Assembly (NCBI GenBank): GCA_041640295.1
Contig: JBEQAR010000003.1
Location: 6,489-70,488 of the forward strand
Direction: 5' to 3'
DNA: 64,000 nucleotides
From: a bacterium
GTDB taxonomy: Bacteria > Patescibacteriota > Minisyncoccia > UBA6257 > HR35
In this document: positions 33,407 to 62,981 of the stretch, piece by piece
Position numbering within the stretch: position 1 is the stretch's first letter
Layout: each line of letters starts with the position of its first letter
Notes under the pieces: model-generated
Told to the model about the DNA's origin: nothing
What the model saw: only the letters and a program-made list of their open reading frames with translations
Database searches by the model: none
Made by a program: the position numbers and the translations under genes

Positions 33407-33663
33407 ATTTTCAAATCTTTCTTTACTCTTTTATAGCTTTCAAATGAGGTTTTTTCTAAATATTTCAACAATTTTCTTCGGTGAACTACTTTTAAAATTA
33501 AACCTCGTTTAGAATTCACATCTTTAGGATTCTTTTTTAAATGTTCAGTTAAATTTAAAATTTCTGAAGTCAAAAGAGCTATTTGCACTTCTGGCGAACC
33601 AACATCTTTTTCGTGTCTTTGATGTTTTTTGATTATCTCTTGTTTTTGTTTTGTCCTCGCCAT
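33403..33663 (-). CDS. rpsO: 30S ribosomal protein S15
   Basis: [48 protein letters not shown]. Confidence 0.9.
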
Positions 33664-37888: not shown

Positions 37889-38446
37889 GTGTGTAAAATC
37901 CATAAATCCTCACCAGACCTAAAGATGAAAAAAAGAGAAAAAAAACAAAAAATTATTGAAGAATTGAAAAATTTATTTTCTCAGTATGAAAATATTTTTT
38001 TTATTAGTTTAAAAAATTTAAAAGTTAATCATTTAAACAAATTAAAAAAGGAATTATCTTTATTAAATTCAAAATTAAAGGTGGCTAAAAAAACATTAAT
38101 AGAAATTGCTAATCAAAACATTGCTGAGATTTTAAAAAATCCAATTTTTAAAATACCTACTGGTATTATTTTTTCTAACCGAAATATTGATTTAGAAATT
38201 ATCAACCTACTCGATAAATATAAAAATGAATTGAAGTTGGAAATTATTGGTGGATATTTAAATAATAGCTTTTATAGTAGTGAACAAGTTTTACCTTTAG
38301 CAAAATTTAAAAATAAAGATCTTATTTATTACAATTTGGTTAGCAATCTTAAAAATAATTTAATCAAATTAGTTTTTACTTTGAAACATCCTTTAATTAA
38401 ATTTAATTCGGTCGTAAATAACATTAAACATAAAAATGCCAGATAA
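37889..38446 (+). CDS. rplJ: 50S ribosomal protein L10. The likely true start is the internal Met at about 37925 (MKKREKK...).
   Basis: Sits upstream of rplL and overlaps it. The sequence fits the L10 pattern (...LKVNHLNKLKKEL...LKVAKKTLIEIA). Confidence 0.7.
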   Translation: MCKIHKSSPDLKMKKREKKQKIIEELKNLFSQYENIFFISLKNLKVNHLNKLKKELSLLNSKLKVAKKTLIEIANQNIAEILKNPIFKIPTGIIFSNRNIDLEIINLLDKYKNELKLEIIGGYLNNSFYSSEQVLPLAKFKNKDLIYYNLVSNLKNNLIKLVFTLKHPLIKFNSVVNNIKHKNAR

Positions 38447-38819
38447 AATAAAAGAAATTATCGAGAAAATTGAAAATCTAACTGTAATAGAATTAAATGA
38501 ATTAATAAAGCAATTGGAGGAAAAATTTGGTGTGGCTAATATGCCAATGTTTGTAGCTGGGGCTGGAACTGCACCAAGTCAAAGTCAAGAAACTGAAGCC
38601 AGTCCATCAAAAGTCAATGTTATTTTAACTGATGCTGGGGCGAATAAAATTCAAGTTATTAAAGCCTTAAGGGAAATCAATCCCCAATTAGGCTTAAAAG
38701 AGGCAAAAGAGTTTGTTGATAATCCTCCTCAAACTATTAAAGAAAATATCAGCCCCGAAGAAGCTAATAAAATAAAAGAAAAAATTGAATCTGCTGGTGG
38801 AAAGGTTGAAATAAAATAA
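38436..38819 (+). CDS. rplL: 50S ribosomal protein L7/L12
   Basis: KIQVIKALREINPQLGLKEAKEFVD...ISPEEANKIKEKIESAGGKVEIK C-terminal domain, with an Ala/Gly hinge. Confidence 0.9.
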   Translation: MPDKIKEIIEKIENLTVIELNELIKQLEEKFGVANMPMFVAGAGTAPSQSQETEASPSKVNVILTDAGANKIQVIKALREINPQLGLKEAKEFVDNPPQTIKENISPEEANKIKEKIESAGGKVEIK

Positions 38820-39714: not shown

Positions 39715-41157
39715 TTAAGTGATTAAATTATCACCTAAAACAATATCAGTATTAGTATTAATGATTAAACCGCACATTTCTTTTTCTTTAACTTCATTGA
39801 CTGGAATTTTATTTCGTTCTAAACTAATTATTTTACCTTTACCAATTATTACTCCGTTTCTAACAATTAACACTCGGTCATTTAACTTAAATTTTCCTGA
39901 AATCACCTGACCTCCGACTGTTTTTTTATTTGGTGTCTTATTAAAAACTCCTAAAATTTCTAATTCACCTCGGTATTCTTTCTTTTCTTTTCTAATTTCT
40001 ATAATATCTTTCAATTTATCTTCAATTTCATAAATAACATTAGCTTCAACCAAAACAAGATTAAGGTTTTTAATATCATCGTAAATATTTTTAGTTAATT
40101 TAAGATTAAAGGCAATCAAAATGCTATCAGTTTGCTTAGCTAATCTTAAATCTTCAGTAGTAATTGGACCAATATCTTCCTTAACTATTTTAATTTTCAA
40201 ACTATGTTCTTGAGATAATCTTTCTAAAAGATATTCAATGGCTTCTATTGAACCCCACAAATCAGCTTTAAGAATTAAATTGATTTCTAAATTGTAGTTT
40301 TGAGAACTAAAAACAACTTGATTCTTAAAATTAATTTCTTTAACTCTTAATTCTTTTTTTAAATTCTCTAAATTTTCTTTATCAACCAATTTGAAAATTT
40401 CACCTGGTTGAGGTAAAGAATCAAACCCATTAATCAAAATAGGCATTGCTGGGTAAGCTTGATTAATTCTTCTGCCAAAAGCATCTTCTAAAAACTTTAT
40501 TTTCCCTGAAGCTGTAGCTGTAGTTAGATAACTACCTACTGTTACTGTACCATTAGTTACTATTCCACCAACTAAAATACCCTTTTTAACATCTTTAGTT
40601 ATTTCAAGAATATAACCCTCACCTTTAGCATTTTCGTCATGGGTTAATTCTAAAATTTCAGCTAATAATAAAATCATATCTAATAACTCATCAATACCGA
40701 TATTTTTAATAGCAGAAATATTTACCGAAGGAATTTGACCGCCCCAATCTTCCACCAAAACACCCAATTCAGATAATTGTTGTTTAATTTTGTCTGGATT
40801 ACTATTTGGTTTATCAATTTTATTAATAGCAACAATAAATGGTAAATTAAACTTTTTAATATAATCCAAACACTCGATAGTTTGTGGTTTGATTCCCTCA
40901 TCAGCAGCAATAATTAGAATAGCGATATCAGCTATTTGAGCACCCTTTTCTCTTAATTTAAAGAAAGCAGAATGGCCAGGAGTATCAATAAAGGTAATTT
41001 TTTCGTTTTTGTAGTTAATTTCATAAGCACTCACTTTTTGAGTGATTCCTCCAGCTTCTTTATCAACAATTTTAGTATTTTGAATAGTATCTAGCAAAGT
41101 TGATTTTCCATGATCAATATGGCCTAAGATAACTACAATGGGTGGTCTTTTTTTCAT
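39715..41157 (-). CDS. infB: Translation initiation factor IF-2, short form lacking the long N-terminal region. The start is placed at the internal Met (MKKRPPIVVILG) because the longer ORF, which would reach 41208, runs into tRNA-Leu.
   Basis: G domain with ILGHIDHGKSTLLD, DTPGH and NKID. The two beta-barrel domains and the C-terminal domain follow. Confidence 0.85.
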   Translation of the reverse strand: MKKRPPIVVILGHIDHGKSTLLDTIQNTKIVDKEAGGITQKVSAYEINYKNEKITFIDTPGHSAFFKLREKGAQIADIAILIIAADEGIKPQTIECLDYIKKFNLPFIVAINKIDKPNSNPDKIKQQLSELGVLVEDWGGQIPSVNISAIKNIGIDELLDMILLLAEILELTHDENAKGEGYILEITKDVKKGILVGGIVTNGTVTVGSYLTTATASGKIKFLEDAFGRRINQAYPAMPILINGFDSLPQPGEIFKLVDKENLENLKKELRVKEINFKNQVVFSSQNYNLEINLILKADLWGSIEAIEYLLERLSQEHSLKIKIVKEDIGPITTEDLRLAKQTDSILIAFNLKLTKNIYDDIKNLNLVLVEANVIYEIEDKLKDIIEIRKEKKEYRGELEILGVFNKTPNKKTVGGQVISGKFKLNDRVLIVRNGVIIGKGKIISLERNKIPVNEVKEKEMCGLIINTNTDIVLGDNLIT

Positions 41158-41166
41158 AATTAAAAA

Positions 41167-41252
41167 TGGGCAGGGAGGGATTCGAACCCTCACGCTTTTT
41201 TCAAGCACTGGGTCCTAAGCCCAGCGCGTCTACCAAATTCCGCCACCTGCCC
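41167..41252 (-). tRNA. tRNA-Leu (anticodon TAG), class II with long variable arm
   Basis: Reverse complement: GGGCAGG ... ctggg-ctTAGga-cccag, long variable arm, GAGGG-TTCGAAT-CCCTC-CCTGCCC-A. Confidence 0.8.
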
Positions 41253-42816: not shown

Positions 42817-43737
42817 CTAATATGTTTTTTTAAATGCCTCGGTAATTTTTTCTTGAATTTTTGTTCTAATTTGTTCATATTGTCCGATGCCATCTTTAGG
42901 TATTAAACCATTAATATAAAAAAAATTCTCATCATCAACCTTAATTTCAAAATAATCGCTTAACCATAAATTTGTATTAAAATCCAAAATAATATCTATA
43001 AATTGCGATTTTTTTAACTTATCAGCTAAATTAAAAATTTCTCTATAATTCAAATTAGTTTCAATATTTCTTTTTGACTGAAGAATTAAATTGGTTAATT
43101 TTAAATATTCGTTAAAAGAAATATTCTTTAATCTCTCTTTGAGAGATTTAATAATTATAAACTGATTTTCCATTCTTGTAAAATCTCCTTGAGGGTAGTA
43201 ACGAGAACGTAAAACAAATTCAATCCATTCACTGTTCAACTTTCTTTTGCCTGCCGGCAAAGTATAGCCAGTAAGAGCATCAGTAACTGGATACTTAAGA
43301 TCAACCTCTAAACCACCTAAGATATCAACAATTTTTTTTATTATATGAATATCAAAAACTACATATTTTTGGACATTAAAACCAGTTAGATTAGAAACTT
43401 CTGCCAACAACTCTCTTTTTTTCCCTAAAGCATATAAAGAATTTATTTTATACAGATTATTATCAACCCTAACTATCAAATCTCTAGGAATGTGAATAAT
43501 ATAAGCTTTGTTTCGCTTCAAATAAACAACAAAGATTGAATCAGTATTTTCTCCTCCTTGATAACCATAGCCCATTTTTCCTAAAAATAAATAAGTTTCC
43601 GGTTTTTCTAACACAAAAAGTTGGGGTAATTCTTTTCTAATAAATTCAATTTTTTTAGTTAAAGTAATATTATTTAATAAAATAGCTAAAACGATAATCA
43701 ACAAACAAAAAAAGATTAAATAAACAATATTTTTCAT
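42817..43737 (-). CDS. LytR-CpsA-Psr (LCP) family cell-envelope phosphotransferase
   Basis: N-terminal TM anchor. YIIHIPRDLIV LCP core motif. 306 aa. Confidence 0.7.
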   Translation of the reverse strand: MKNIVYLIFFCLLIIVLAILLNNITLTKKIEFIRKELPQLFVLEKPETYLFLGKMGYGYQGGENTDSIFVVYLKRNKAYIIHIPRDLIVRVDNNLYKINSLYALGKKRELLAEVSNLTGFNVQKYVVFDIHIIKKIVDILGGLEVDLKYPVTDALTGYTLPAGKRKLNSEWIEFVLRSRYYPQGDFTRMENQFIIIKSLKERLKNISFNEYLKLTNLILQSKRNIETNLNYREIFNLADKLKKSQFIDIILDFNTNLWLSDYFEIKVDDENFFYINGLIPKDGIGQYEQIRTKIQEKITEAFKKTY

Positions 43738-45929
43738 TTTAAGTTAAAAATGAATTCCCCGTTATGATAATCAACATCAATTTCTTTCACATTATGATAT
43801 TCATTTATTTTATTTAAAATTTTTTCATAAATAATTTTATTAAAATAAGATGGAGAATAGCTAATTAAATAATTTTTAACTGAAGAAGAAAGATTGATTT
43901 GACAATTATGTTTTTTTATTAAGTCTAGATTAATTTCCTGAATCAATATTTCTAAAATTTTTTCTTTTTCGGAAAGATTAAGAGATTTAAAAACAATTAT
44001 ATCAGAGAAGGCTTTAACGATTTCTAAACCATAAATATTTATTAACTTATCCTTAATACTTTTCTTGATATCAATTAAAGTTTTACCTTTTTCTATTTCT
44101 TGATTAATAAAATCAGCGAAAAGATGAGAAATAGCAATAATAAGACAGTAATTTAATTCAATAATTTCTCCAGCAGCATTTTTAAAGTAACCATCGTTTA
44201 ATATTGAAATAAAAATTTCTAAAACTTCTTTACTAGCTTCTTCAAAATTATCTAATAATATTAAAGAATAAGGATTGTTTTTAATTTCCGTAGTTAATTT
44301 GCCAGTATTGTTTATTGTCTCTTCGCCAATTAATGATTGGATATCTTTAATCTTACTTAAATCAAAATAAATAATCTTATTATTAAAGTAAATATTAGCT
44401 AAAATTTGAGCTAATCTTTTTTTACCTACTCCACTAGGACCAATAAAAATAAAACTAATGAGTTTTTTAACCGATTTAAGAACTTCAACAACATTTTTAA
44501 CAGCAAACTCTTGATTAACAAATTTTTGATAAATAATCTCTTCTAAATTATCAAAAAAGTATTTTTCTAAGAAAATAAAATTCGAAAAGCCTGTTAGTTT
44601 ACCAAAAACATCACCAACTATTTCTTCGGTAATAACTTTTAAATTATTTTTTTGACAAAAATTGACAATTTCTGTAACTAATTTTCGTGCATCTGATATG
44701 TTATTAAAATGATTTTTTGATAATAGGGCAATTTTTGTTAAAGCCTTTGGTTGAATAATAATTTTATTATTAAGTTCCAAAGCTAAAATTGTTAGTAAAT
44801 CTTTTTCAGAAAAATTACTAATAGTGATAATCTTAAAAAATGTTTTCAATTGAGGAATTTTATCAAGTTTCTTCGGTGTTAAAGAAAGAAAAAGCTTAAT
44901 TGGTGTTTGTTTAAGAAACTTTTCAAAAATATACCAATAATTTTTAAGCAAAAACAATGGCGGGTCGGGTATAAAAACAATAACTTGATCATCATCGCTT
45001 GCTTCTGTTAATAAAGAAATTAATTTATTTTCAAAATTTTCTCGTTCTTTATTGTAAATCTCTTCTAAATCTAAAAAGTTTATTTTTTTATTCAAATAAC
45101 TCTCAGGAGTAATTCCTTGGTCAATTAACCAAATCAATCGTTTAATTAAAGTTCTTTTCCCTACACTTACTGATCCCACTAAGATTAATCGCCAATTTTC
45201 ATTATTTAAAATCTGATTTAGTTCATCTTCATGCCCAATAAAAATATTTTGATTAAAAAATTGATTCTTATAAATTAATAAAAAGGCTGAATAAACATCG
45301 AGGAAGGTAATTTTTAATTTGAATAATAAATTCTCAACTAATGGGGTATTTTTTTCTAAAATAGAAAGTAATAAACCGACTGGCGTTATTTTTTCAAAAT
45401 GAAATGTTACTGAAAATTTATAACTTTGGATAAACAAAGATTGTAAATTTTTATAAATTAAATAATGCTCATCAATTTTTAAATCTAATTTTTTACCGCT
45501 TTCAATATTTGTTAATAAATTATTAATTTCTTTTTTAATAGTTTGTGGTTTGATTTCTAATAAATCGAAAATTTTAATTATTTCTTTAAAATTTAAAAGT
45601 TGATTAACAATTGAGATATCAAGTTGATCGATATTCTTTGATTCAATAACAGCATTTAAAATTGCTAACTTTAATTGATTATCTAAATAATCTTCTAAAT
45701 TTTGACTTTTCTGTAATTTTAAATTTTTTATCGGTAGGTGTTTAAAAATGATTAAGTCAAGCAAAAAAATAGTAAATATCCAAAAACCAATTAAATTTAA
45801 ATACTTTTGTTCAGAAAAAAATAATCCTAAACTAAAAAATATTATTAAGTAATATAAACTAATTGAAATTATTTTAAATAATCGTCTTTGATAATTTTTT
45901 AAGCTTAAACTAAGTAAAAAATTATTCAT
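43734..45929 (-). CDS. Membrane-anchored Hsp100/ClpB-like double AAA+ protein with degenerate catalytic motifs
   Basis: Two N-terminal TM helices. D1 reads LVGSVSVGKRTLIKRLIWLIDQGITPE ... ENFENKLISLL ... VIVFIPD, against ClpB [20 protein letters not shown] ... GEFEERLK ... ILFIDE. D2 reads FIGPSGVGKKRLAQILA ... YSLILLDNFEEA, against ClpB FLGPTGVGKTELAKALA ... YSVILLDEIEKA. Confidence 0.55.
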   Translation of the reverse strand: MNNFLLSLSLKNYQRRLFKIISISLYYLIIFFSLGLFFSEQKYLNLIGFWIFTIFLLDLIIFKHLPIKNLKLQKSQNLEDYLDNQLKLAILNAVIESKNIDQLDISIVNQLLNFKEIIKIFDLLEIKPQTIKKEINNLLTNIESGKKLDLKIDEHYLIYKNLQSLFIQSYKFSVTFHFEKITPVGLLLSILEKNTPLVENLLFKLKITFLDVYSAFLLIYKNQFFNQNIFIGHEDELNQILNNENWRLILVGSVSVGKRTLIKRLIWLIDQGITPESYLNKKINFLDLEEIYNKERENFENKLISLLTEASDDDQVIVFIPDPPLFLLKNYWYIFEKFLKQTPIKLFLSLTPKKLDKIPQLKTFFKIITISNFSEKDLLTILALELNNKIIIQPKALTKIALLSKNHFNNISDARKLVTEIVNFCQKNNLKVITEEIVGDVFGKLTGFSNFIFLEKYFFDNLEEIIYQKFVNQEFAVKNVVEVLKSVKKLISFIFIGPSGVGKKRLAQILANIYFNNKIIYFDLSKIKDIQSLIGEETINNTGKLTTEIKNNPYSLILLDNFEEASKEVLEIFISILNDGYFKNAAGEIIELNYCLIIAISHLFADFINQEIEKGKTLIDIKKSIKDKLINIYGLEIVKAFSDIIVFKSLNLSEKEKILEILIQEINLDLIKKHNCQINLSSSVKNYLISYSPSYFNKIIYEKILNKINEYHNVKEIDVDYHNGEFIFNLK

Positions 45930-46206
45930 TGAAAAAAATTATCCAACTAATTAAAAATGGTAATAACAACCAAAATATAATCATTATTAAAACGACAAGA
46001 AAAATCAAATTATACCAAATAAACCCTAACAAAAAATTAAGTAAATTAAAGGGAAATTTTTTATTAAGCAGATAATTTTTTTCAATAAATTGTTTGTTCT
46101 TATTTAAAACAGAAATAAAAAAAATAATAGCTTCGAAAAAATAAAATTTTAAGAATTTATAAAAAGGCTGACAAATTTCAATAACTAAAGAATAAATTAA
46201 TTTCAT
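45922..46206 (-). CDS. Small hydrophobic membrane protein
   Basis: 94 aa with 3 hydrophobic helices. Overlaps the stop of the upstream gene. Confidence 0.3.
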   Translation of the reverse strand: MKLIYSLVIEICQPFYKFLKFYFFEAIIFFISVLNKNKQFIEKNYLLNKKFPFNLLNFLLGFIWYNLIFLVVLIMIIFWLLLPFLISWIIFFNE

Positions 46207-46231
46207 TTTATAAAATTATATTTTCTTATTT

Positions 46232-47500
46232 TTAAAATAGAGTCTTGGGTGGTTCTTTGATTTCTTTTTTATGAAAATTACTATAATCAAAAATTCTTAT
46301 TTTACCATATTCACCATCATAGCCTGGTTCAATAATTAACTGACCGTTATCTATTTTTTCTAAAGCTTGATAAACTTCTGGATATTTTATTTTCATTTTA
46401 TTTTTATCAAAATTACCTACTAAAATTTCAATTTCCGGACCAAATTCTTGAACAATTTCCAAATAATTATCTAAAACTTTTTTACTCGTTGGATTGGTGT
46501 GGTAAATTTCAGCTAAGATTTCGCTTAAAGGAACTGTTTTTTTAAATGGGGGCCGATTATGATCAACATAATTAACATCTCTTTGAGCTAAACTTTCAAC
46601 TCTATTCATAACTCCCACAGTGATTTTTCTTTGACAAATAGGACAAAGATAATTATTTTTTTTAGATTCATCAGGAGAAAACCTAATTTTGCATAATCTA
46701 TGACCATCGTAATGATATTTACCTTCTTCGGGAAAAAATTCAATAGTCATCACAATTTTATTTTGATTATCTGGAGCTTTTAAGGCTTGATATAAATTTT
46801 GATAAGTTAAATTCTCTAATTCAAAAATAGTTGCCTCTCGTCCGATACGGTGAGGATAAGGAGAATGAGCGTCAGAAAAAGAAACAATAGAAATATTATC
46901 TAATTCTGAAATCCGCCAGTTCATTTGTGGATCTGAAGATAAGCCTGTTTCAACCGCTGAAAGATATTTTGTATTCTCATCAAAAGCTTCATAAATAGAA
47001 TCGAAACCAGACATTGAACCATATAAAGAAAACCACGGGGTCCAGATATGCGCTGGAATAAAAATTACTCGCTCATTAATTTCTAAAGAAATTTTTAAAA
47101 CATCGTTAGCATCTAAACCTAATATTGGTCGACCATCACTGCTTAAATTAGTTAAATGAGAAATTTTTTTATTAAATCTAAATACCGAATCGAAGTCAGG
47201 AAAAATAACCAAATAATGAATTCGCCTTACTTTTTTATTTTTACTATAAATAGAACTTAACTCGCAACTTAAGATAAAATAAACATTATCATCGTTATTT
47301 TTTAGTTTATAAATTCCATCACTAAATTCAACTAATTTTTCCTTCAATTCGTTTAACCACAAAGGATGAGTATAATCGCCAGTAGCAATCAAGTTTAAGC
47401 CTTTTAATTTTCCCCAATAATTCAAATTTTCTAAATTTAAATTTTTTGAACAACCGCGAGAATATTTTGAATGAAGATGTAAATCAGCTGTGATTTTCAT
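46232..47500 (-). CDS. PHP-domain protein with a Zn-finger, resembling endonuclease Q (TIGR00375 family)
   Basis: N-terminal PHP motif MKITADLHLHSKYSRGCS. C-terminal CxxC pair (CKIRF ... CPICQRK). About 420 aa, matching EndoQ size. Confidence 0.55.
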   Translation of the reverse strand: MKITADLHLHSKYSRGCSKNLNLENLNYWGKLKGLNLIATGDYTHPLWLNELKEKLVEFSDGIYKLKNNDDNVYFILSCELSSIYSKNKKVRRIHYLVIFPDFDSVFRFNKKISHLTNLSSDGRPILGLDANDVLKISLEINERVIFIPAHIWTPWFSLYGSMSGFDSIYEAFDENTKYLSAVETGLSSDPQMNWRISELDNISIVSFSDAHSPYPHRIGREATIFELENLTYQNLYQALKAPDNQNKIVMTIEFFPEEGKYHYDGHRLCKIRFSPDESKKNNYLCPICQRKITVGVMNRVESLAQRDVNYVDHNRPPFKKTVPLSEILAEIYHTNPTSKKVLDNYLEIVQEFGPEIEILVGNFDKNKMKIKYPEVYQALEKIDNGQLIIEPGYDGEYGKIRIFDYSNFHKKEIKEPPKTLF

Positions 47501-47523
47501 TTAATTTTTGCTTATCTTCTTAT

Positions 47524-47997
47524 TTATAAGAGATGGTCGGCAATTTTGCTCGCAGCATAAGATTCAGGTTTAATTTTTACTTCAAAACCATAACTTTTAA
47601 TGAGATTAATAATTTCTTTAATAACACTTTTACTTTTTCCATTAGTTCCTAAATCTAAATGAACTTCAAAATCAAATTTAAGTCTTTCGCTAATCAAAAG
47701 CTTAAAAAGCTTTTCGCTAATATTTAAACTTAAAATTGCTTCTTGCCACAGACGAGAATAAAGATCATAATTTTTCAGAGAAAAACTTCTTCGCCAAAAA
47801 TATTTAGCTCCCTGTCCAACTCGATGAATAACAATCACAGAAATAAATTCAACACCTTTGATTCTATTTTCTGAATCAGTACCAACAAAAAGCTTATAAT
47901 TATATTGAGGTTTTTCTAAAATAAAATTTTTGATAATTCGAACAACTTCTTGCGAGGAGACTCTTTGGCCATAAGCTGTTCGAAATTCATTTATCAT
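47524..47997 (-). CDS. YkuK/DUF458-like RNase H-fold protein
   Basis: VGTDSENRIKGVEFISVIVIH resembles the conserved GTDS block of DUF458. 157 aa. Confidence 0.5.
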   Translation of the reverse strand: MINEFRTAYGQRVSSQEVVRIIKNFILEKPQYNYKLFVGTDSENRIKGVEFISVIVIHRVGQGAKYFWRRSFSLKNYDLYSRLWQEAILSLNISEKLFKLLISERLKFDFEVHLDLGTNGKSKSVIKEIINLIKSYGFEVKIKPESYAASKIADHLL

Positions 47998-50117: not shown

Positions 50118-51470
50118 TTATTGACGACATTGAGGATATGTATTACTAACTTCTTGTCTATTACAGTTACAATTTTCATCAATAGTATTACCACCATACC
50201 TTTGCCAATCACCCCATCTACCATTATCCTGGCATCTTATGCGCCAATCACCAACAGAACCAGCGAACAAACATCTACACATTTCAACATTAACAGCATC
50301 ACACCTAGCCCTAACAGAAGTACCTAAAGCATTAACAGTACCTGTAGCATAGTATGTTCCACTTGCAGTAAAGGTAACTGATGTAGAAAAAATGGCTGTT
50401 GATGAATTATAATATGAAGACCAAGATATAGTTGAGGGTGAACCTCCAGAAGTAGCAATTTCTAAAGTAAAGGTAGCATAACCTATATTTTGATCAGAAG
50501 TAGCAGTTAGGGTGTAGACAGTGCTGCTATTTATTCTTACTGTAGTCGGGTTAACATTACAATTAAGAGATAGGGATGGCGGAGTTATGTTGTTTGTTAC
50601 ATAAATGGTTGCTGTGTTATAAGAAATTTTAATTAATTGATCACCCCCTCCACTTTTTACTAAAAACAAATTATATGTACCACTTGCAGCATTACTATTT
50701 ATACCAAGATTTCTTGTTATAAAAATTCGATTAATATCTCTAGTCTGATCATAAAAATCGGTATTCGAAAAACTAAAATGAACAAAACCGGATGGATTAG
50801 ATGTTATAACGCTATCAGCATTTGAAAGATTGGTTGGACAATACAATTTCTTATAATAAATAGAATAAGTAGTGGTGGCTGATTGATTGTTATTGTCCAA
50901 AATCACCATAGTAGATGTTGGAATAAGATAATATTGATCATCCCTACTTGCTGGATTTAAGGCAGTAGTTGAAGAAACAAGATAAAAATATATAGAACCA
51001 AAATCACTATTGCTTGACGAGGCTGAAATTTGCCACAATTCATAAGTACTTGTTACATTCCTGTTAAACATACCTTCAATAATACAATTATTTCCCTCAA
51101 CTCTTCCATTTAAGCCTTCGCAATTATTACTTAACGAGGTTGATGTTGGGTTTGGTTCTTTTCGCTCAAATCTCAGATTGATCCCCGTAGTCGCGGGAAT
51201 TTCTAATCTATAAAATGATTTATCTAAAACAGTGGTTGTAGGTGGTATAGCATAGAATTTATAAAAATCATCATATAGGTTTGGTTGTCTATTGATTCCC
51301 ACTTGAACTAAACTTCCTAATGAATTAAAACGAGCATTTGGGTAAACAGATAATTTCAACCCTCCTCCTGATTGTGCGCCTAAATAATTGTTTAAATAAA
51401 ATAGAGCAAGAAAAAGAATAACTATATTAAATAAAAATAATAAAGTTTTTCTCCTATTTAAAGCAAACAT
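50118..51470 (-). CDS. Secreted S/T/N-rich protein with a Cys-rich C-terminus. Possible surface adhesin.
   Basis: Signal peptide/TM (LLFLFNIVILFLALFYL). Long low-complexity Ser/Thr region. About 9 Cys in the last 70 aa. Confidence 0.4.
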   Translation of the reverse strand: MFALNRRKTLLFLFNIVILFLALFYLNNYLGAQSGGGLKLSVYPNARFNSLGSLVQVGINRQPNLYDDFYKFYAIPPTTTVLDKSFYRLEIPATTGINLRFERKEPNPTSTSLSNNCEGLNGRVEGNNCIIEGMFNRNVTSTYELWQISASSSNSDFGSIYFYLVSSTTALNPASRDDQYYLIPTSTMVILDNNNQSATTTYSIYYKKLYCPTNLSNADSVITSNPSGFVHFSFSNTDFYDQTRDINRIFITRNLGINSNAASGTYNLFLVKSGGGDQLIKISYNTATIYVTNNITPPSLSLNCNVNPTTVRINSSTVYTLTATSDQNIGYATFTLEIATSGGSPSTISWSSYYNSSTAIFSTSVTFTASGTYYATGTVNALGTSVRARCDAVNVEMCRCLFAGSVGDWRIRCQDNGRWGDWQRYGGNTIDENCNCNRQEVSNTYPQCRQ

Positions 51471-51552: not shown

Positions 51553-52722
51553 TTAACCCAAAAATAACTTTAATTTTTGAATCAAAAAATCAATATCGGT
51601 TTTATTAGTTTCGCGACCAAAAGAAAATCTTAGACTACAATTAGCTCTTTCAGGATATATTTTAGCCACTACTTGACTAGGGATAATTGCTCTTGATTGG
51701 CAAGCTGTTCCTGCTGAAACATAGATATCATTCTGATCCAAATACAAAAGTATTTCCATTGAAGTTTTATTAGGAAAATAAATATTAATAATTTTTGGAG
51801 TAGTTATTTCTAAATTACCGTTAATTTTGAAATCAATACCGTTTTTCTTTAATTGATTTAAAAAATAATCCCTGATTTCTGTCAAATGCTTTTTTAATTT
51901 TTCTCTTTCTTCAACAGCAAATTTTAATGCTTGAGCAAAACCAACAATTAAGGGTACATTTTCTGTACCTGGCCTTAAATTAAATTCTTGCTCTGAACCA
52001 GAAATTAGTTTTTCTAAAATAATATTAGATTTTTTGTACAAACAAGCAATACCCTTTGGACCATAAATTTTATGTCCAGACAATGTCATTAAATCAACGC
52101 CTAACTTTTTTACAGAAATTTCTTCAGTTAAGGGTGCTTGACTAGCATCAGTATGAAAATAAATTTTAATTTCTCTTTTTTGATTAATCCCAGTTAAGAT
52201 TTCTGAAATTTTTTGAATTGGTTGAATAATACCAATTTCGCTATTAACATAATGAACAGAAATTAAACAGGTGTTTTCTTTAATTAATTGAACGATTGAA
52301 CTATATTTTACAAGGCCATTATTATCTAATGGTAAAAAGTCAATTTCAATTAAATTATTTTTTTTTAAATCTAATAAAACTTCACTTACTGAAGGATGCT
52401 CAATTTCGGTGCTTATAATATGAGGTTTAATTTTCAGTCGATAAAATAAACAATAAACTAAACCCTTGATAGCTAAATTATTGCTTTCAGTTGCTGATGA
52501 AGTAAAAATAATTTCATTTAAATAATCTGCTTCTAATAAATTTCTAATTAAATTTCGCGATTGATCAACAGCCTTAAGAGCTAATTGACCAAAACGATGA
52601 ATACTAGAAGGATTAGCAAATAGTTTTATGAAATAAGGCTTCATTACTTCAAAAACTCTTTTATCAACAGGTGTTGTTGAGGCATAATCTAAATAAATCA
52701 TTTTAACGAGTGGTAGTAGCAA
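51553..52722 (-). CDS. Cysteine desulfurase (class V aminotransferase, NifS/IscS-like)
   Basis: LDYASTTPVD, SGHKIYGPKG (PLP-lysine) and SAGTACQS (active-site Cys). Confidence 0.8.
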   Translation of the reverse strand: MLLPLVKMIYLDYASTTPVDKRVFEVMKPYFIKLFANPSSIHRFGQLALKAVDQSRNLIRNLLEADYLNEIIFTSSATESNNLAIKGLVYCLFYRLKIKPHIISTEIEHPSVSEVLLDLKKNNLIEIDFLPLDNNGLVKYSSIVQLIKENTCLISVHYVNSEIGIIQPIQKISEILTGINQKREIKIYFHTDASQAPLTEEISVKKLGVDLMTLSGHKIYGPKGIACLYKKSNIILEKLISGSEQEFNLRPGTENVPLIVGFAQALKFAVEEREKLKKHLTEIRDYFLNQLKKNGIDFKINGNLEITTPKIINIYFPNKTSMEILLYLDQNDIYVSAGTACQSRAIIPSQVVAKIYPERANCSLRFSFGRETNKTDIDFLIQKLKLFLG

Positions 52723-53542
52723 TTACTCCAAAAATGTCATAAACCGGTCTTGCCCATATAGTATTTCCTGACACAGTAACGGTAGTCGAGGCTCCTAAGG
52801 AACAATAATCTCTGTGTGGATCAACGGCAAAAAGAACAAAAAGATATCTTTTATCCGAAACAGGCAGGCTTATAGTATAATTAATTGTTTCTAAAGACGT
52901 ACAATAAATAGTATTTCTATCTGGGGGAAATCGAGATAATCTTTGAGTTGGTTGATTAAGAGGCACTGAATCTAATCCAGAAAAATCTATTCTATCTCCT
53001 GAAATAGAATTGTCTCGAGTATTATATCTACTACCATAAATTCCCCAACAGTCAATTCTATTTTGTCTATTTTGATTATCATTTCCATATTGACACAAAA
53101 CATAAGCTCTCTCGCGTGTAGTCTGAAAGGTAAGAGATAAATCACAATTATTATTATGAGCCACGATGGACAGGTTTGTTAAAATCTGAAAAGAACCTGA
53201 TAATGTAATAATTTGACAATTAATTTCACCCCCTCCACTCGTTCCTGAGCCTGTACCACTTCTAGTTCCATTTGTCCCTGACCCAGTTGTTAAACTATTG
53301 TTAGGTAATGAACTTATTGAAGCACCTTTCTCCAAAAATGATAAAATTATCACTGGAATAGAATAAACTGAAATCAAAAGAGCTAAGCCTAAAACTACAT
53401 AAGGAAGATTTTTCTTAACTTCGTCGTATTTTTTGAAATAAAATAAGATTCCTAAATAAATAAAAACTCCGGCTGAGCCTAAAACTATTATGGTTTGTAA
53501 AATTCTTAATAAAGTATTAAGGATTCTTATGATTTCTTCCAT
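52703..53542 (-). CDS. VirB2/TrbC-like two-helix pilin paralog with an approximately 180-aa C-terminal extracellular extension
   Basis: TM1 ILQTIIVLGSAGVFIYLGILFY, loop KKYDEVKKNLP, TM2 YVVLGLALLISVYSIPVIIL, then a Gly/Ser/Thr-rich linker and a Cys-containing domain. Confidence 0.5.
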   Translation of the reverse strand: MEEIIRILNTLLRILQTIIVLGSAGVFIYLGILFYFKKYDEVKKNLPYVVLGLALLISVYSIPVIILSFLEKGASISSLPNNSLTTGSGTNGTRSGTGSGTSGGGEINCQIITLSGSFQILTNLSIVAHNNNCDLSLTFQTTRERAYVLCQYGNDNQNRQNRIDCWGIYGSRYNTRDNSISGDRIDFSGLDSVPLNQPTQRLSRFPPDRNTIYCTSLETINYTISLPVSDKRYLFVLFAVDPHRDYCSLGASTTVTVSGNTIWARPVYDIFGVIATTTR

Positions 53543-53544
53543 TT

Positions 53545-53802
53545 TTAAAATTTAGGTACTAATACTCGAATTAAATCAAAAATTATATTTCGGTTAATAA
53601 ATATTATACCCAATAAAATTATTCCTAGAATAATAAACAATAAAGAGGTTTTAAATTCTCCATAATCTTTTTTTTGCCAATAATTTTTAACCCCTAAATA
53701 AATAAAGCCGAAAATGGCTAAAAAAATAGCAAAAAGAAGTAAATATTGGGCTAAGTTAGAGAAAAAATTAAGAATTGGTTGAGTAATATGAGAAAGCATC
53801 AA
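53545..53802 (-). CDS. VirB2/TrbC-like two-helix pilin paralog
   Basis: 85 aa. TM1, a short charged loop (KNYWQKKDYGEFKTS), then TM2. Confidence 0.5.
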   Translation of the reverse strand: MMLSHITQPILNFFSNLAQYLLLFAIFLAIFGFIYLGVKNYWQKKDYGEFKTSLLFIILGIILLGIIFINRNIIFDLIRVLVPKF

Positions 53803-54078
53803 CTATCTTAAGAATGAAAAAATTATTAATGGAATAGAAAAGGAGGCAATAATAAAAACAATTCCTAAAATAATGAAAATTAATTCAGAATGCCAATCTT
53901 TTCCTTGACTAGTTGTATATTTAATTCCAGCAATAATTAACAAAGCAATTCCTAAAATTAAACCTAAATTAAAAAATATCCACAACAAACCTTCAAATTT
54001 ACATAAAAAATAGTCTAAACCAGAAAGATTAGCGCATCCAACTTCTTTACCAATTTGAGCAAGAACTTCATTCAACAT
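53803..54078 (-). CDS. VirB2/TrbC-like two-helix pilin paralog
   Basis: 91 aa. TM1 LLWIFFNLGLILGIALLIIAGIKY, loop TTSQGKDWHSE, TM2. Confidence 0.5.
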   Translation of the reverse strand: MLNEVLAQIGKEVGCANLSGLDYFLCKFEGLLWIFFNLGLILGIALLIIAGIKYTTSQGKDWHSELIFIILGIVFIIASFSIPLIIFSFLR

Positions 54079-54090
54079 TAAAATATTTTA

Positions 54091-55671
54091 TTAAAAATTA
54101 ATTCTAATAATTTCTGGCTCAGCTAATCTTAATGTTGTACTACAATTACTAATATTCAATATTGAATACTCAATTTGTATGAAAGTGTTTTGAGGTAAAT
54201 TAATAGGTAATTGTACAATATTTTGCGATTCATTAGCTTCATAGGGTAAATTAAAAGAAAATGTTTTAGTAAACCTTCGCCAATCTAAACCTATAACTTC
54301 ACCATTTTGGTCTAAATTAATATTAGTAGCATTAGCTGCTTTTATTGATAAAGTTAATCGGCAAGTTCCGTTATTTGTTGGTGGATTTTGAAGGTCGTAA
54401 GAAAATCTTATATAAAACGGTGGATCAAATAAAAAATAATCAGCGATATTTGTTAACCAATTTGAGCTTGAAAAGAAGTTTTGTAGTGCTCTAAAAAAAT
54501 TAGTAGTAATAATATTTCTGTTAATTCTGAATGTTTGTACTCCATAAATTTCTACATCAATACTTTGCAAAACAACTTCAACTCTTGTAGATGGTGTTCT
54601 TAAATCGTATTGTGATAAATTAACATTACAATTATCTGAAGAAAAATAAAGGCGAAGTGTATCACCAGGTCGAACATTTAAAACGTTAATCTGAATCATA
54701 TTGGGTGTAGTGTTAACTTGAATATTATTTCTTGAGGGTAATGTTTGACCGCTTCTAAGATTAAAAACTAAAACATTTAAACTACAATTATTATTACTGC
54801 TAGCAATAAAATTAATATTATTATCAGCGTAGGTTATTGATGAGGGATCAATATTTATTCTACCACCTCTTTGTTGCTGTTGTTGATTTTGTTGACCTTG
54901 ATTTTGCTGTCCTTGATTTTGTTGATTAACAGCAACGAAAGTACCTCCTGATAATCCCCTTTCTAAAGCAACAACAAAACTCATGGCTAATACTCCAACC
55001 ACCACCCCTAAAAGTCCATAATAAAAACGACTGTGTATCTGGCTAGCATTTGTAGGATTAGTAATATACAGTATTCCTGCCCAAATTAAGAAAATTACAC
55101 CCAAAAATAAAGTTAAAGTATAGAAAAACCTAAGAATATAAGTTAATAACCATAAAGCACATTGTCCTATGCCTTGCTCACAATAATTTACTCGGGGTAT
55201 ACCTCCTTGTTGGCTACTTGGTCCTACATAAATGGATACTAACCTATTATTTTCAATTTTTACATTTAAAACAGCTAAATCTAAAACAGCATCTGGTGAT
55301 ATTTGTAAATGCTGAGCTAATCGATTCCTTTCAGCTTGATCAGTTTTAATTACTTCATCAGCTGCTTGAGTTAAAAGAATATTCCAATTACCATAATTTT
55401 CTCTAACGGCTTGATTCACGGAAATTTGAGGATCATTACTAACTATAGTACCACCACTAACCGCAAAAAGTGTGCTGGTATTATAAATTCTATTTAATAA
55501 TTCAGCTGCTTTCGCTCTAACTTTATCTATAAAGGTAGAATCAGTAATTTCTCTAATTTCTCGTGAGGTTTTTATTCCGAATTGAAAAGGATTAAAAAAA
55601 TAATCTTGAGCAAAAACTAATAAGGGTATAAAAATTAGTAATATTAAAATTTTGATAATATTTTTGTTCAT
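54091..55671 (-). CDS. Large secreted protein with an embedded VirB2/TrbC-like two-helix module, a Q/N-rich linker and a C-terminal domain
   Basis: Signal peptide. About 170-aa N-terminal domain. TM1 ALWLLTYILRFFYTLTLFLGVIFLIWAGILYI, loop, TM2. Then a (QQNQG)n tract and a roughly 270-aa domain. Confidence 0.45.
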   Translation of the reverse strand: MNKNIIKILILLIFIPLLVFAQDYFFNPFQFGIKTSREIREITDSTFIDKVRAKAAELLNRIYNTSTLFAVSGGTIVSNDPQISVNQAVRENYGNWNILLTQAADEVIKTDQAERNRLAQHLQISPDAVLDLAVLNVKIENNRLVSIYVGPSSQQGGIPRVNYCEQGIGQCALWLLTYILRFFYTLTLFLGVIFLIWAGILYITNPTNASQIHSRFYYGLLGVVVGVLAMSFVVALERGLSGGTFVAVNQQNQGQQNQGQQNQQQQQRGGRINIDPSSITYADNNINFIASSNNNCSLNVLVFNLRSGQTLPSRNNIQVNTTPNMIQINVLNVRPGDTLRLYFSSDNCNVNLSQYDLRTPSTRVEVVLQSIDVEIYGVQTFRINRNIITTNFFRALQNFFSSSNWLTNIADYFLFDPPFYIRFSYDLQNPPTNNGTCRLTLSIKAANATNINLDQNGEVIGLDWRRFTKTFSFNLPYEANESQNIVQLPINLPQNTFIQIEYSILNISNCSTTLRLAEPEIIRINF

Positions 55672-56067
55672 TTAACCGCGGGTTAGGCTAAATTCAATAG
55701 CTTTAACTAAACTAAAGGCTAAAATAGTAATTATAGCTCCAATAACTGCCCATAAAAGATATTTTTTAGCATTTTCATCATTTGGTTTTGTAGCAAATAA
55801 TAAACCACTATATATTATAAACCCAACTGATAATAAAAGTGAAAGAGTATAAAGTAAAGTAAGAATTTTTTGAGCTAACCATAACATACACCTACTTAAT
55901 AATCCTGGTGGTATTGGTTGACCTCTTAAAACATCGAAAATTGTTATTGGAGTACAAACTCTTTGAGGGATAAATTGAAGTTGCTGAGCATAAATATTAG
56001 GAATATAAAATATATTAAGGAAAATTATATTAAGAATAAACAAAGTTAAAATAATTTCTCTTTTCAT
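55672..56067 (-). CDS. VirB2/TrbC-like pilin
   Basis: Signal peptide, two Cys before TM1, TM1 ILTLLYTLSLLLSVGFIIYSGLLFA, loop TKPNDENAKKY, TM2 LLWAVIGAIITILAFSLV. Confidence 0.55.
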   Translation of the reverse strand: MKREIILTLFILNIIFLNIFYIPNIYAQQLQFIPQRVCTPITIFDVLRGQPIPPGLLSRCMLWLAQKILTLLYTLSLLLSVGFIIYSGLLFATKPNDENAKKYLLWAVIGAIITILAFSLVKAIEFSLTRG

Positions 56068-56083
56068 TTTCTAACCAAATTTT

Positions 56084-56425
56084 TTAACCAACACTACCCG
56101 TTCTTACAACATTTTCAATTAATAAAACTAAACTATAAGAAATTAAAGCAACAACTAAACCAATAATTATCCAAACTAAATTTTTGCCTAAATTTTTAAA
56201 CTCACCTGGTTGAAGAATTATTCTTAATCCTGTTAAGGCAATTAAAATTATTGAAAAAGCTAAAGAAAGCCAAATTAAAATTCTAAATAACCACCAAAAT
56301 AATAACAGCAGACAGGGTAAGATATTATCACAAACTAATGGAGCTGGGATTGGCTCTGAGGAAGGTAATCCAAATTGTGGATTAAAAGGATAATTAAGTG
56401 TTTGGAGAATAATAAAAAGATTCAT
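56084..56425 (-). CDS. VirB2/TrbC-like two-helix pilin paralog
   Basis: TM1 ILIWLSLAFSIILIALTGLRIIL, loop QPGEFKNLGKN, TM2 LVWIIIGLVVALISYSLVLLI. Confidence 0.5.
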   Translation of the reverse strand: MNLFIILQTLNYPFNPQFGLPSSEPIPAPLVCDNILPCLLLLFWWLFRILIWLSLAFSIILIALTGLRIILQPGEFKNLGKNLVWIIIGLVVALISYSLVLLIENVVRTGSVG

Positions 56426-56440
56426 AATCTATTTCATCTT

Positions 56441-56812
56441 TTATCCTCCCAATTGACCACTTTGAATAAATTGAGCTAAAAGATTAACCACTGCCCAAGA
56501 TATCAAAGCAATAATTAATCCTACTATTCCATAAACAATTTTTCCCTTACCTTCATCAAATTTTCCTTGAACAATTATTAATATACCTGCCCAAGCAAAG
56601 AAAATAACAGCAAAGGCTAAAGCTAACCAGATCAATACTCTAAAAACTATTTGAAATATAGTTAAAATGGTTTCTCTTGGATTATCAGATATAACACCTG
56701 CTTGAGGATTATCTACTGGAAATTCTGGTAAGTCTTGACCATTAATATAAAAGGGTACAAAAAGCGAGAGAAAAAGATAAACTAAAAAACTATAAATAAA
56801 TACTTTTTTCAT
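56441..56812 (-). CDS. VirB2/TrbC-like pilin
   Basis: Signal peptide, TM1 VLIWLALAFAVIFFAWAGILII, loop VQGKFDEGKGK, TM2 IVYGIVGLIIALISWAVVNLL. Confidence 0.55.
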   Translation of the reverse strand: MKKVFIYSFLVYLFLSLFVPFYINGQDLPEFPVDNPQAGVISDNPRETILTIFQIVFRVLIWLALAFAVIFFAWAGILIIVQGKFDEGKGKIVYGIVGLIIALISWAVVNLLAQFIQSGQLGG

Positions 56813-56902
56813 TTTTTAAAAATTTTAATTTTAATACGACCTAATGTTAATTTATAATTACTAATAATTATAAAATAAAATTAATTTAAATTTAACTTAA
56901 AT

Positions 56903-61730: not shown

Positions 61731-62981
61731 TTATTTCGTAGCTTCATATAAAGCCTTAATTTCATCTTCTGATAATGCTCGATTATAGATGCGAACTTCA
61801 TCAAAGGTTGTTCCTTTTGCTGCATCTACGCACGTGGGGTCATATATTCCTATATTGATTTTTCTTGCATCTCCATATGAAGCTGACAAATTATTAGCTG
61901 ATCCTCTAACAATTGTATCTATGTACATTCTGTGAGAATTTTTTGATTTTTCAAAAACATAAGCATACATATGCCAAATATTATTAGATGGCGCTGAAAA
62001 AGAAAAGCCGGTGTCTTGTTTATTGCTGTTAGCTACATAAATATAAGAATGGTTTTTAACCCAAAAACCATTACAACACCCCGTAATTCCATATTGAGTG
62101 CTTAGATGAAATAAGGTATTAGCGCCAGAATTATAATTATCCCAAAGAATTATAGTAAAATCATTCTGTGGTAGCTTATATAAAATACTAGTGGAAGGGA
62201 TATCTTGGTAAATACCAAATTGATCGTTTCTACAACCAGTACTTGCACTAGAATTATATTTTAATCCATAACCACTTTTACCAGATGTCCATATTACCAT
62301 TGATGAAGATGGTAGTATTGTTAGATCTATACCATAACCCGATAAATCTTTAGTCGTAGTTCCACTTCCTTCATCAAATGGCCAATAACCTACAAGACCT
62401 GATTGGAAGGTTGAAAGCTTTTTATTAGTTCCTGCTTCATAAAGAAGAGGTTCGATACCTTCATCTTGAATAGCTGGTAAATAGTTACTTTCTGGTTTTG
62501 CTGATAATTTATAACTCCCCCCAACAACAAAACTATAATAATAAGGAGGTTTATTAATAGGATCAATAGGTAATCTATCTAAATTAACAACAGAAAAAGA
62601 ATTAAAAGGAATAGGAATCCAACCATTACCAGTAATATCTGTAGGAGTTGCTGAACATCTGTAAGACCAATCTGAAGGTAAAGAAGGTAATTGAGATAAC
62701 CACGAAGAACAAGTTGAAGATGAATCTGGAAGAGAAATATAAACAACATTAGAAGAAGCATAATTTAGTTCATTAAAAGTACCTCTATTAGATTCAGCAA
62801 TAATATTAATCGCATATTCTATACCTTCAATATCTTGAATTCTTTGTTTATCTCTTATACCTTGAAAAATATTAACAGGTTTAATAAAAAAAATAGCGGT
62901 AGCGATTAAAAAAATTATTAAACCAAAAACAACTAAAAATTCAACAATAGTAAAAGAAAAAGAATGTTTTTTAATTATCAT
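61731..62981 (-). CDS. Type IV prepilin-like protein with a C-terminal LamG/concanavalin A-like lectin domain
   Basis: N-terminal SFSFTIVEFLVVFGLIIF (F-T-I-V-E pilin motif). C-terminal LVGYWPFDEGSGTTTKDLSGYG ... DEVRIYNRALSEDEIKALY, the canonical LamG_3 signature. Confidence 0.65.
   Translation of the reverse strand: MIIKKHSFSFTIVEFLVVFGLIIFLIATAIFFIKPVNIFQGIRDKQRIQDIEGIEYAINIIAESNRGTFNELNYASSNVVYISLPDSSSTCSSWLSQLPSLPSDWSYRCSATPTDITGNGWIPIPFNSFSVVNLDRLPIDPINKPPYYYSFVVGGSYKLSAKPESNYLPAIQDEGIEPLLYEAGTNKKLSTFQSGLVGYWPFDEGSGTTTKDLSGYGIDLTILPSSSMVIWTSGKSGYGLKYNSSASTGCRNDQFGIYQDIPSTSILYKLPQNDFTIILWDNYNSGANTLFHLSTQYGITGCCNGFWVKNHSYIYVANSNKQDTGFSFSAPSNNIWHMYAYVFEKSKNSHRMYIDTIVRGSANNLSASYGDARKINIGIYDPTCVDAAKGTTFDEVRIYNRALSEDEIKALYEATK

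Follow-up and report, generated by a model that had tools for sequence, protein, structure and literature searches.

What do seven small, adjacent membrane-protein genes on the chromosome of a Patescibacteriota bacterium encode, and with which machinery would their products work? The genes, named g1 to g7 here, occupy positions 52703-56812 on the minus strand of a 64,000-nucleotide stretch of contig JBEQAR010000003.1 (positions 6,489 to 70,488; assembly GCA_041640295.1), which as a whole is referred to below as the window. The original prediction, made from the sequence without database searches, described them as a tandem array of two-helix pilin genes of the VirB2/TrbC type, and took the locus for a stand-alone system for surface filaments or host attachment. 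In this study, the seven VirB2-like pilin genes are found to be an anciently duplicated chromosomal operon, one of the VirB2 pilin arrays already published for Patescibacteria. We consider it probable that their products are subunits handled by a type IV secretion system (T4SS) of the VirB4/VirB6 type, encoded elsewhere in the genome.

Seven paralogs sharing a two-helix pilin module

Seven consecutive open reading frames (ORFs) lie exactly where the original prediction had placed them, separated, in order from g1 to g7, by 15, 16, 0, 12, 0 and 2 bp (Table 1). Common to all of them is a pair of adjacent hydrophobic helices with a short polar, mostly lysine-rich loop in between, to which a signal-peptide-like N-terminal helix is added in g1, g3 and g4; g2 has no clear signal peptide, and g5, g6 and g7 have none. 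The hairpin of g3 was modelled by AlphaFold (AF2) with helices at aa 56-93 and 98-130 (pLDDT 80-86). Leave-one-out profiles, built from six members each, find the seventh among the 86 window ORFs of at least 60 aa at E-values of 7e-8 to 9e-21, and match no other ORF of that set, including the other multi-pass membrane proteins. Because the profiles recover all members and no other membrane protein of the window, the similarity among the seven exceeds mere hydrophobic composition. Pairwise identity over 74 shared columns averages 24%, with a range of 11-38%. The seven are true paralogs with a common two-helix hairpin.

Table 1. Genes of the array, parts of the two fused members and the adjoining genes, with profile scores of the pilin modules (positions in the window; leave-one-out, profile from the other six members).
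Feature	Position	Strand	Description	Scores
g1	56441-56812	-	123 aa; signal peptide and two-helix pilin module; no Cys pair	PF18895 28.8 bits; leave-one-out E 8.7e-21
g2	56084-56425	-	113 aa; pilin module; Cys pair C32, C38 preceding helix 1	PF18895 14.5 bits (sub-threshold); leave-one-out E 6.5e-21
g3	55672-56067	-	131 aa; signal peptide, Cys pair C38/C60, two-helix pilin module	PF18895 26.7 bits; PF04956 TrbC E 0.0017
g4 (whole gene)	54091-55671	-	526 aa	
g4 signal peptide, aa 1-21 (...VFA|QD)	55609-55671	-	hydrophobic N-terminal segment; conserved in 13 orthologues	
g4 N-terminal extracellular alpha/beta domain, aa 22-163	55183-55608	-	from ortholog alignment and AF2 model	
g4 pilin module, aa 164-241	54949-55182	-	Cys pair C164/C171; model helices 168-204 and 209-240	PF18895 15.2 bits (sub-threshold); leave-one-out E 5.6e-15
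g4 Q/N-rich low-complexity linker, aa 242-268	54868-54948	-	read from sequence; pLDDT <50	
g4 C-terminal region, aa 269-526	54094-54867	-	two predicted beta-sandwich (Ig/FN3-like) domains; four conserved Cys	
g5	53803-54078	-	91 aa; short pilin; Cys pair C15/C26	PF04956 TrbC E 0.0088; leave-one-out E 9.9e-13
g6	53545-53802	-	85 aa (gene callers: 84); minimal pilin hairpin without Cys or signal peptide	PF04956 TrbC E 7.8e-4; leave-one-out E 6.9e-8
g7 (whole gene)	52703-53542	-	279 aa	
g7 pilin module, aa 1-73	53324-53542	-	no signal peptide; strongly basic loop KKYDEVKK	PF18895 13.6 bits (sub-threshold); leave-one-out E 3e-11
g7 G/S/T linker, aa 74-105, and C-terminal domain, aa 106-279	52706-53323	-	six Cys	
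Cysteine desulfurase-like gene (Aminotran_5)	51553-52722	-	immediate downstream neighbour of g7; start within 1-20 bp of the g7 stop	
Cys-rich protein	50118-51470	-	450 aa; N-terminal signal anchor; 11 Cys	

Some members share further sequence features. A cysteine pair directly before helix 1 occurs in g2, g3, g4 and g5 and in all of their orthologues, and is missing from g1, g6 and g7; it could staple a loop by a disulfide. The motif Y-[PF]-F-N-P-x-[FY]-G stands at the start of g2 (as Y-P-F-N-P-x-F-G) and at the predicted mature N-terminus of g4, and could serve in processing or recognition.

As regards the pilin family, g1 and g3 pass the Pfam gathering threshold of PF18895 (T4SS_pilin, 26.6 bits), both of them marginally, and g2, g4 and g7 match the same model below it. 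The TrbC/VirB2 model PF04956 (threshold 27.9 bits), which the original prediction had named, is matched below threshold only, by g6 (20.0 bits), g3 (19.0 bits) and g5 (16.7 bits), and provides the sole Pfam similarity of g5 and g6. It is the leave-one-out profiles that connect the sub-threshold members with g1 and g3. NCBIfam yields weak similarity only, to NF045849, a pilin-like family from integrative and conjugative elements (ICEs) of Mycoplasma (g3 at E 0.0011, and g5). In a database of 5.8 billion proteins, a profile of all seven modules matched 37, for the most part orthologues from metagenome-assembled genomes named 'Candidatus Parcubacteria', 'Minisyncoccia' or 'Patescibacteria group'; many carry a precomputed PF18895 annotation, and two are named 'pilin' by NCBI. 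Among the proteins matched is P0055 (E 9e-12), in which two pilin modules are joined in 223 aa, encoded on a Saccharimonadia contig (L016:10001-10672). This contig bears five PF18895 pilin genes, divergent from an adjoining T4SS core cluster that consists of VirB4 (DUF87/AAA_10/P-loop_TraG), a TraC-like/TrsD protein, PrgI and a TrbL_3 VirB6-like protein, and four of the five array pilins are matched by the window-derived profile at E 8e-8 to 8e-20. Through these matches, homology of g1-g7 to pilins of a T4SS cluster is demonstrated, and the identification of the seven as VirB2-like homologues of T4SS-type pilins, first suggested by the original prediction, is supported at the level of sequence.

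Other origins were considered for the array. Type IV pilus, Flp and sortase pilins are ruled out by their missing diagnostic motifs, since neither the class III signal peptide G|F[TS]LxE nor the Flp motif G-x4-EY nor LPxTG was found in g1-g7 or in the Cys-rich neighbour. A holin or phage origin is unlikely given a context of housekeeping rather than phage genes, and the conserved synteny on the chromosome makes a mobile element unlikely.

Two members carry large extracellular domains, again as predicted. The AF2 model of g4, computed from a 13-sequence alignment (mean pLDDT 67), places strands at aa 271-376 and 419-523 of the C-terminal region, modelled as Ig/FN3-like sandwiches. Foldseek against the PDB returns tandem Ig/FN3-like domains for this region (best E 6e-6), the matches including transglutaminase C-terminal domains or barrels, integrin, cytokine receptors and RbmA; since TM-scores are low despite this E-value, the matches indicate a fold class and no specific relative of the modelled domains. 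The N-terminal domain of g4 (about 140 aa) comes in addition to the domains of the original prediction. It is the best conserved part of g4 besides the hairpin, with the motifs FNPF.[FY]G..KT and KAAE.LN invariant in orthologues, and its alpha/beta model has pLDDT values of 77-90 (about 80-90 at aa 40-151); it has no Pfam match, and structure searches gave no specific fold match. The linker of g4 varies in length and composition across orthologues. In g7, the pilin module is related to the g4 hairpin by hhalign (E 3.5e-5). Five of the six cysteines of its C-terminal domain are conserved in the ortholog alignment, C247 being the exception; the domain belongs to no Pfam family, and hhalign detects no homology to the g4 C-terminal region or to the Cys-rich neighbour.

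An exhaustive search of 1.84 billion representatives with a g4 profile hidden Markov model (HMM) gave five clusters with the full architecture, about eleven further clusters with the hairpin and the C-terminal domain, and some 325 remaining matches to the pilin module only, so that a hairpin joined to a g4-type C-terminal domain is found in only about 16 cluster representatives at 50% identity. A word-indexed search found only 17 homologues of g4, and a scan of GTDB genomes with the g4 profile gave three loci, none from the window's own species.

Several modules may also stand in one protein. Among 144 matched representatives, 34 have two modules, six have three, two have four, two have five and three have six. 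Single polypeptides with 3-6 tandem two-helix pilin modules, which we call 'polypilins', are present in public data, for example P0223 (552 aa), P0264 (501 aa), P0318 (555 aa), P0232, P0241 and others.

Conservation of the array and its place among known systems

Four close relatives (L017, GCA_026004495.1; L006, GCA_025060085.1; L002; L004) share one gene order, in which comM is divergent from g1 to g7 and these are followed by the cysteine desulfurase and, further on, by TsaD. Order, sizes and one-to-one positional orthology of the array genes are conserved in all four, and score matrices against three of them (L017, L002 and L004) are sharply diagonal, each paralog having its own orthologue. 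The hairpin modules are 44-83% identical to their orthologues, with g1 at 44-68% in the four relatives and g5, the most conserved member, at 60-83%; neighbouring housekeeping proteins are 52-78% identical. The extracellular extra domains evolve faster than the hairpins or get lost. The C-terminal domain of g7 is 34-48% identical to its orthologues and is missing from that of L004 (77 aa), and g4 of L004 has an extra inserted domain, reaching 656 aa. In the same genome, a single 214-aa protein (L004:9354-9998, P0028 family) combines the orthologues of g2 and g3.

The synteny comparison also shows the array among other genes. L020 (JAMCWY010000019.1), a relative at a greater distance, has an eight-gene array (L020:4941-10773) with g1-, g2-, g3-, g4- and g7-like members and three others, situated between unrelated genes, with neither comM nor the cysteine desulfurase, and with a class II ribonucleotide reductase downstream. 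One of its members (479 aa) ends in a hairpin that follows a large N-terminal domain, and its g4-like protein is without most of the N-terminal domain. Since L020 keeps the array in other surroundings without comM, the adjacency to comM looks incidental; most simply, the array itself is the conserved unit and comM adjacency is inherited synteny. Furthermore, one-to-one orthology, distinct fixed architectures and natural fusions of modules (g2 with g3 in L004, the two-module pilin of L016 and proteins with up to six modules) argue for a fixed multi-subunit, heteromeric assembly with specialised positions, and not for interchangeable variants.

Arrays of this type have been catalogued. Quinonero-Coronel et al. 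(2025; PMC12102498) searched 3,035 Patescibacteria genomes with PF18895, PF04956 and CONJScan profiles; VirB4 was present in 2,417 assemblies (about 80%) and was not detected in about 20%. VirB2-like pilins were found in 1,948 assemblies that also have VirB4, near virB4 in only 1,135 of them, and virB4 itself usually lies near dnaA in Paceibacteria. The same study describes 441 'VirB2 arrays' of 2-11 genes in 383 assemblies, an array being defined by pilin genes in tandem or with one non-pilin gene between them, and member identity having a mean of 25% and a maximum of 54% (PMC12102498). Wang et al. (2023; PMC10633639) showed a six-gene array of predicted pilins in the T4SS locus of Southlakia epibionticum ML1 to be essential (also PMC12857230).

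Seven tandem genes with gaps of 0-16 bp, a mean identity of 24% and a maximum of 38%, in a Patescibacteria genome, fit the published description in every tested respect. Therefore, the locus belongs to the published Patescibacteria VirB2 pilin arrays, and the kind of system is not new; the novelty proposed by the original prediction does not hold for a class of locus that is already published and catalogued. That prediction had itself conceded that the array would be a known one if a complete T4SS were encoded next to an identical array in relatives. The L016 contig goes most of the way, its T4SS core cluster adjoining a homologous array, although it comes from another class and its array is not identical.

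Phylum, PF18895 family, tandem genes on one strand, identity near 25%, chromosomal context and the absence of a relaxase nearby are shared with the published arrays. On the other hand, the array here is not beside virB4, and two of its members are fused to large extracellular domains, of which no mention was found in the accessible text of the published array descriptions. While the published arrays are most abundant in Saccharimonadia and Microgenomatia, this one comes from a lineage of the Parcubacteria/Minisyncoccia type; the nearest homologues carry the names Candidatus Parcubacteria, Minisyncoccia or Patescibacteria group bacterium, and the housekeeping gene content stands on contigs from small genomes.

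Comparison with other systems is instructive as well. The VirB2/TrbC/TraA conjugative pilins of Gram-negative T4SSs (PF04956) are likewise small proteins in which a short basic loop joins two hydrophobic helices, at times preceded by a long leader, and g3, g5 and g6 match their model weakly (E 8e-4 to 9e-3). Here, however, scores are sub-threshold, the host is a monoderm, VirB5, VirB7, VirB9 and VirB10 are not in the context, and seven paralogs, some with fused domains, take the place of a single major pilin. Bartonella and Anaplasma also have several virB2-like genes that are divergent and in tandem, and there the VirB2 paralogs are thought to be immune-evasion variants; in contrast, each paralog of the present array has a stable orthologue and an architecture of its own. 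The minor pilins or pseudopilins of type IV pili and type II secretion offer a functional analogy only, in that several conserved paralogs have distinct roles and some bear extra domains at the tip. Their fold and processing are unrelated; they have one N-terminal helix rather than two and a class III signal peptide motif that is lacking here. The Mbov_0395 family (NF045849, from Mycoplasma ICEs) resembles the array members as a small two-helix pilin-like protein of a wall-less or monoderm T4SS, but scores fall far below the cut-off (18.7 versus 40), and no ICE context is present.

A probable T4SS encoded elsewhere and the competing explanations

T4SS genes were looked for around the array. 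Of the 61 window ORFs with 90 aa or more, about 50 were scanned against Pfam, among them every ORF of at least 185 aa, and the identities of comM, PGK, ABC-3 and others were taken from gene tables. VirB4, VirD4, VirB6, PrgI and TrsD were found in none of the scanned ORFs, which agrees with the original prediction for VirB4, VirB6 and VirD4. The short flanks read beyond the window ends, less than 2 kb at one end and about 4.5 kb at the other, have housekeeping genes only, and five relatives have no T4SS gene at a distance of up to 10 kb from the array. A virB4 gene (with TrsD, PrgI/VirB3 and VirB6) within about 20 genes of the pilins was thus found neither in the window and its short flanks nor in the flanks of the relatives. 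With the L016 VirB4 as query, all 120 matches listed were Saccharimonadia proteins of at least 85% identity. Membership in the array class is not called into question by a missing nearby virB4, since pilins are near virB4 in only 1,135 of 1,948 assemblies. The earlier description of the locus as stand-alone and not a canonical T4SS drew solely on absence from 64 kb, and local absence is common for the family.

In VirB2/TraA pilins, the basic inter-helix loop is cytoplasmic while the protein is in the membrane and lumenal in the pilus, and both termini face outward. By analogy, each of g1-g7 would form a membrane hairpin whose basic loop is cytoplasmic and whose two termini lie outside, and this topology would display the N- and C-terminal domains of g4 and the C-terminal domain of g7 on the outside. 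A T4SS of the VirB4/VirB6 type, encoded elsewhere and probably near dnaA, would extract and polymerise the pilins, giving a heteromeric pilus or conduit. Its shaft or base may consist of the small members, and g4 (N-terminal domain and two Ig-like domains) and g7 (Cys-containing domain) may present binding domains on its outside or tip, taking the role of the VirB5-type tip proteins or separate adhesins of other T4SSs. The assembled structure might mediate contact or exchange with the host cell.

Few systems have been shown to be essential to Patescibacteria in their life as epibionts, and the T4SS with its pilin array is one of them. Paralogs that are each conserved, and in some cases joined to one another, point to a fixed heteromeric assembly and not to a pool of variants, and subunits with Ig-like or Cys-containing surface domains are candidates for the host-contact end. 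As a discovery, the present locus is incremental, its class being already catalogued; what it adds are comparative constraints and the fused-domain subunits.

Several results weigh against such a pilus. The PF18895 passes are narrow (28.8 and 26.7 versus 26.6 bits), and none of the seven members reaches the PF04956 threshold. The seven-module profile finds no solved pilin among PDB sequences, its sole match being a chance one to a photosystem I subunit, and fold searches with the hairpin return generic helical hairpins only. The genes for VirB4, VirB6, PrgI, TrsD and VirD4 are all absent from the 64-kb window, its short flanks and the 10-kb surroundings in five relatives. A Patescibacterial T4SS pilus has never been observed, and the literature speaks of it as a possibility (PMC12857230). 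The generic fold matches and the unobserved pilus would also suit membrane hairpins that do not polymerise, the module being an anchor or a small subunit of an envelope complex, possibly of the T4SS channel, and g4 and g7 being tethered adhesins. The lack of signal peptides in g5-g7 fits this explanation, as do the polypeptides with up to six tandem hairpins, which are easier to understand as polytopic membrane proteins than as pilus subunits. We hold it to be possible, though on the unlikely side, given that the module has family-level homology to the T4SS_pilin/TrbC models, that the family is encoded beside VirB4/VirB6 in another lineage, and that the hairpins are as conserved as housekeeping proteins, in keeping with tightly packed subunits. 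In our judgement, it is decidedly unlikely that the locus is a stand-alone one for a surface filament or attachment and works without any T4SS machinery. To our knowledge, no self-assembling filament of the VirB2 type exists, and absence from 64 kb of a genome of about 0.6 Mb says little. The lack of T4SS genes in the window, in its short flanks and within 10 kb of the array in five relatives speaks for it, as do the roughly 20% of Patescibacteria assemblies without detected VirB4, but pilin genes away from virB4 are common (near it in 1,135 of 1,948 assemblies), and virB4 of this class usually lies near dnaA, whereas the window contains a terminus-like region (PMC12102498 for the published figures). 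It is improbable, too, that the whole lineage is without VirB4-type machinery and that, by way of Sec/YidC, the seven paralogs build a heteromeric surface filament or adhesion organelle on their own; if true, this would be a structure derived from VirB2 that no longer depends on the T4SS and whose pilin subunits themselves include the adhesin domains.

Divergence of the paralogs (24% mean identity), together with extracellular domains of g4 and g7 that vary, gain inserts or vanish between relatives, might also be expected if the array were a set of pilin variants that replace one another for antigenic or host-range variation, as has been proposed for the VirB2 paralogs of Bartonella and Anaplasma and raised for Patescibacteria arrays in PMC12102498. 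For this locus it is very improbable, because four relatives strictly keep the gene order, the gene sizes and the one-to-one orthology, the fixed architectures of the members differ in signal peptide, Cys pair and fused domains, and no pair is recently duplicated (maximum 38% identity). The least credible explanation, to which we give hardly any weight, is a DNA-uptake (competence) apparatus coupled to the divergent comM. The divergent arrangement of comM and the array is conserved in five genomes, and a T4SS takes up DNA in Helicobacter (cited in PMC11665869). However, synteny in those same five genomes extends over the entire region, with PGK, the ABC transporter, the cysteine desulfurase and TsaD, so that comM adjacency carries no specific signal, and L020 keeps its array without comM. 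The link to DNA uptake that the original prediction had proposed is thus weak. In S. epibionticum, moreover, the T4SS is essential and competence is dispensable (PMC12857230).

Genomic surroundings

The window contains ordinary chromosomal genes, namely those for a tRNA synthetase, CTP synthase, a P-type ATPase, RNase J, EF-G, PNPase, IF-2, a Mur ligase, ribosomal proteins, TsaD, PGK and comM; its GC content is 27%. Plus-strand genes at 4-18.5 kb meet a minus-strand run at 18.6-56.8 kb in a strand switch near 18,500. As gene orientation converges there and the cumulative GC skew has its coinciding maximum near 18.5 kb, the sequence suggests a position near the replication terminus. A XerC/D-type tyrosine recombinase gene (33651-34583, plus strand) is the sole sizeable plus-strand gene in the minus run from 18.6 to 37.7 kb; the L10 and L7/L12 genes (37889-38819) are plus-strand as well.

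The flanks of the array were predicted correctly on one side only. The gene comM is indeed divergent from g1, but the Cys-rich protein is not the immediate neighbour on the other side, where the cysteine desulfurase-like gene intervenes. The latter follows the array directly in all four close relatives, not in L020, and is probably co-transcribed with it; no functional link is evident. The Cys-rich protein, without any Pfam or NCBIfam match, is kept near the array in relatives at 37-49% identity. A weak BLAST similarity between it and the g4 C-terminal region (E 0.001) was not confirmed by hhalign profile comparison.

The 90-bp divergent intergenic region between comM and g1 (56813-56902) is likely the promoter region of the array. 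A sigma-70-like site upstream of g1 (TTAACA-17-TAAAAT, minus strand, 56850-56822) is weak evidence, as such sites occur at chance level in this AT-rich DNA (45 in the window versus 42 in shuffles). The terminator scan found no terminator-like site in the gaps between the seven genes and a weak one inside g4 (minus strand, 54666-54651), and the total count is at chance level (4 found versus 2.6 expected).

Elsewhere in the window, a conserved block of four minus-strand genes (43734-47997) encodes a 731-aa AAA_2/nSTAND3-like ATPase, a 94-aa ORF, a 422-aa protein and an RNaseH_like protein; it is syntenic in relatives, in which the 422-aa protein is MJ0043_C. Other putative surface or envelope proteins are encoded on the minus strand at 34641-37713, 61731-62981, 1553-2692 and 2806-4074, their types being a thrombospondin type-3 repeat protein adjoining a DUF2339 membrane protein, a Laminin_G_3 lectin-like protein, one with a weak dockerin match, and a fusion of YkuD and Peptidase_M23. 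Finally, tRNA-Leu(tag) (41167-41252, minus strand) overlaps the first 42 nt of the called IF-2 ORF (39715-41208, minus strand, GTG start), and the true start of IF-2 is probably further downstream than called.

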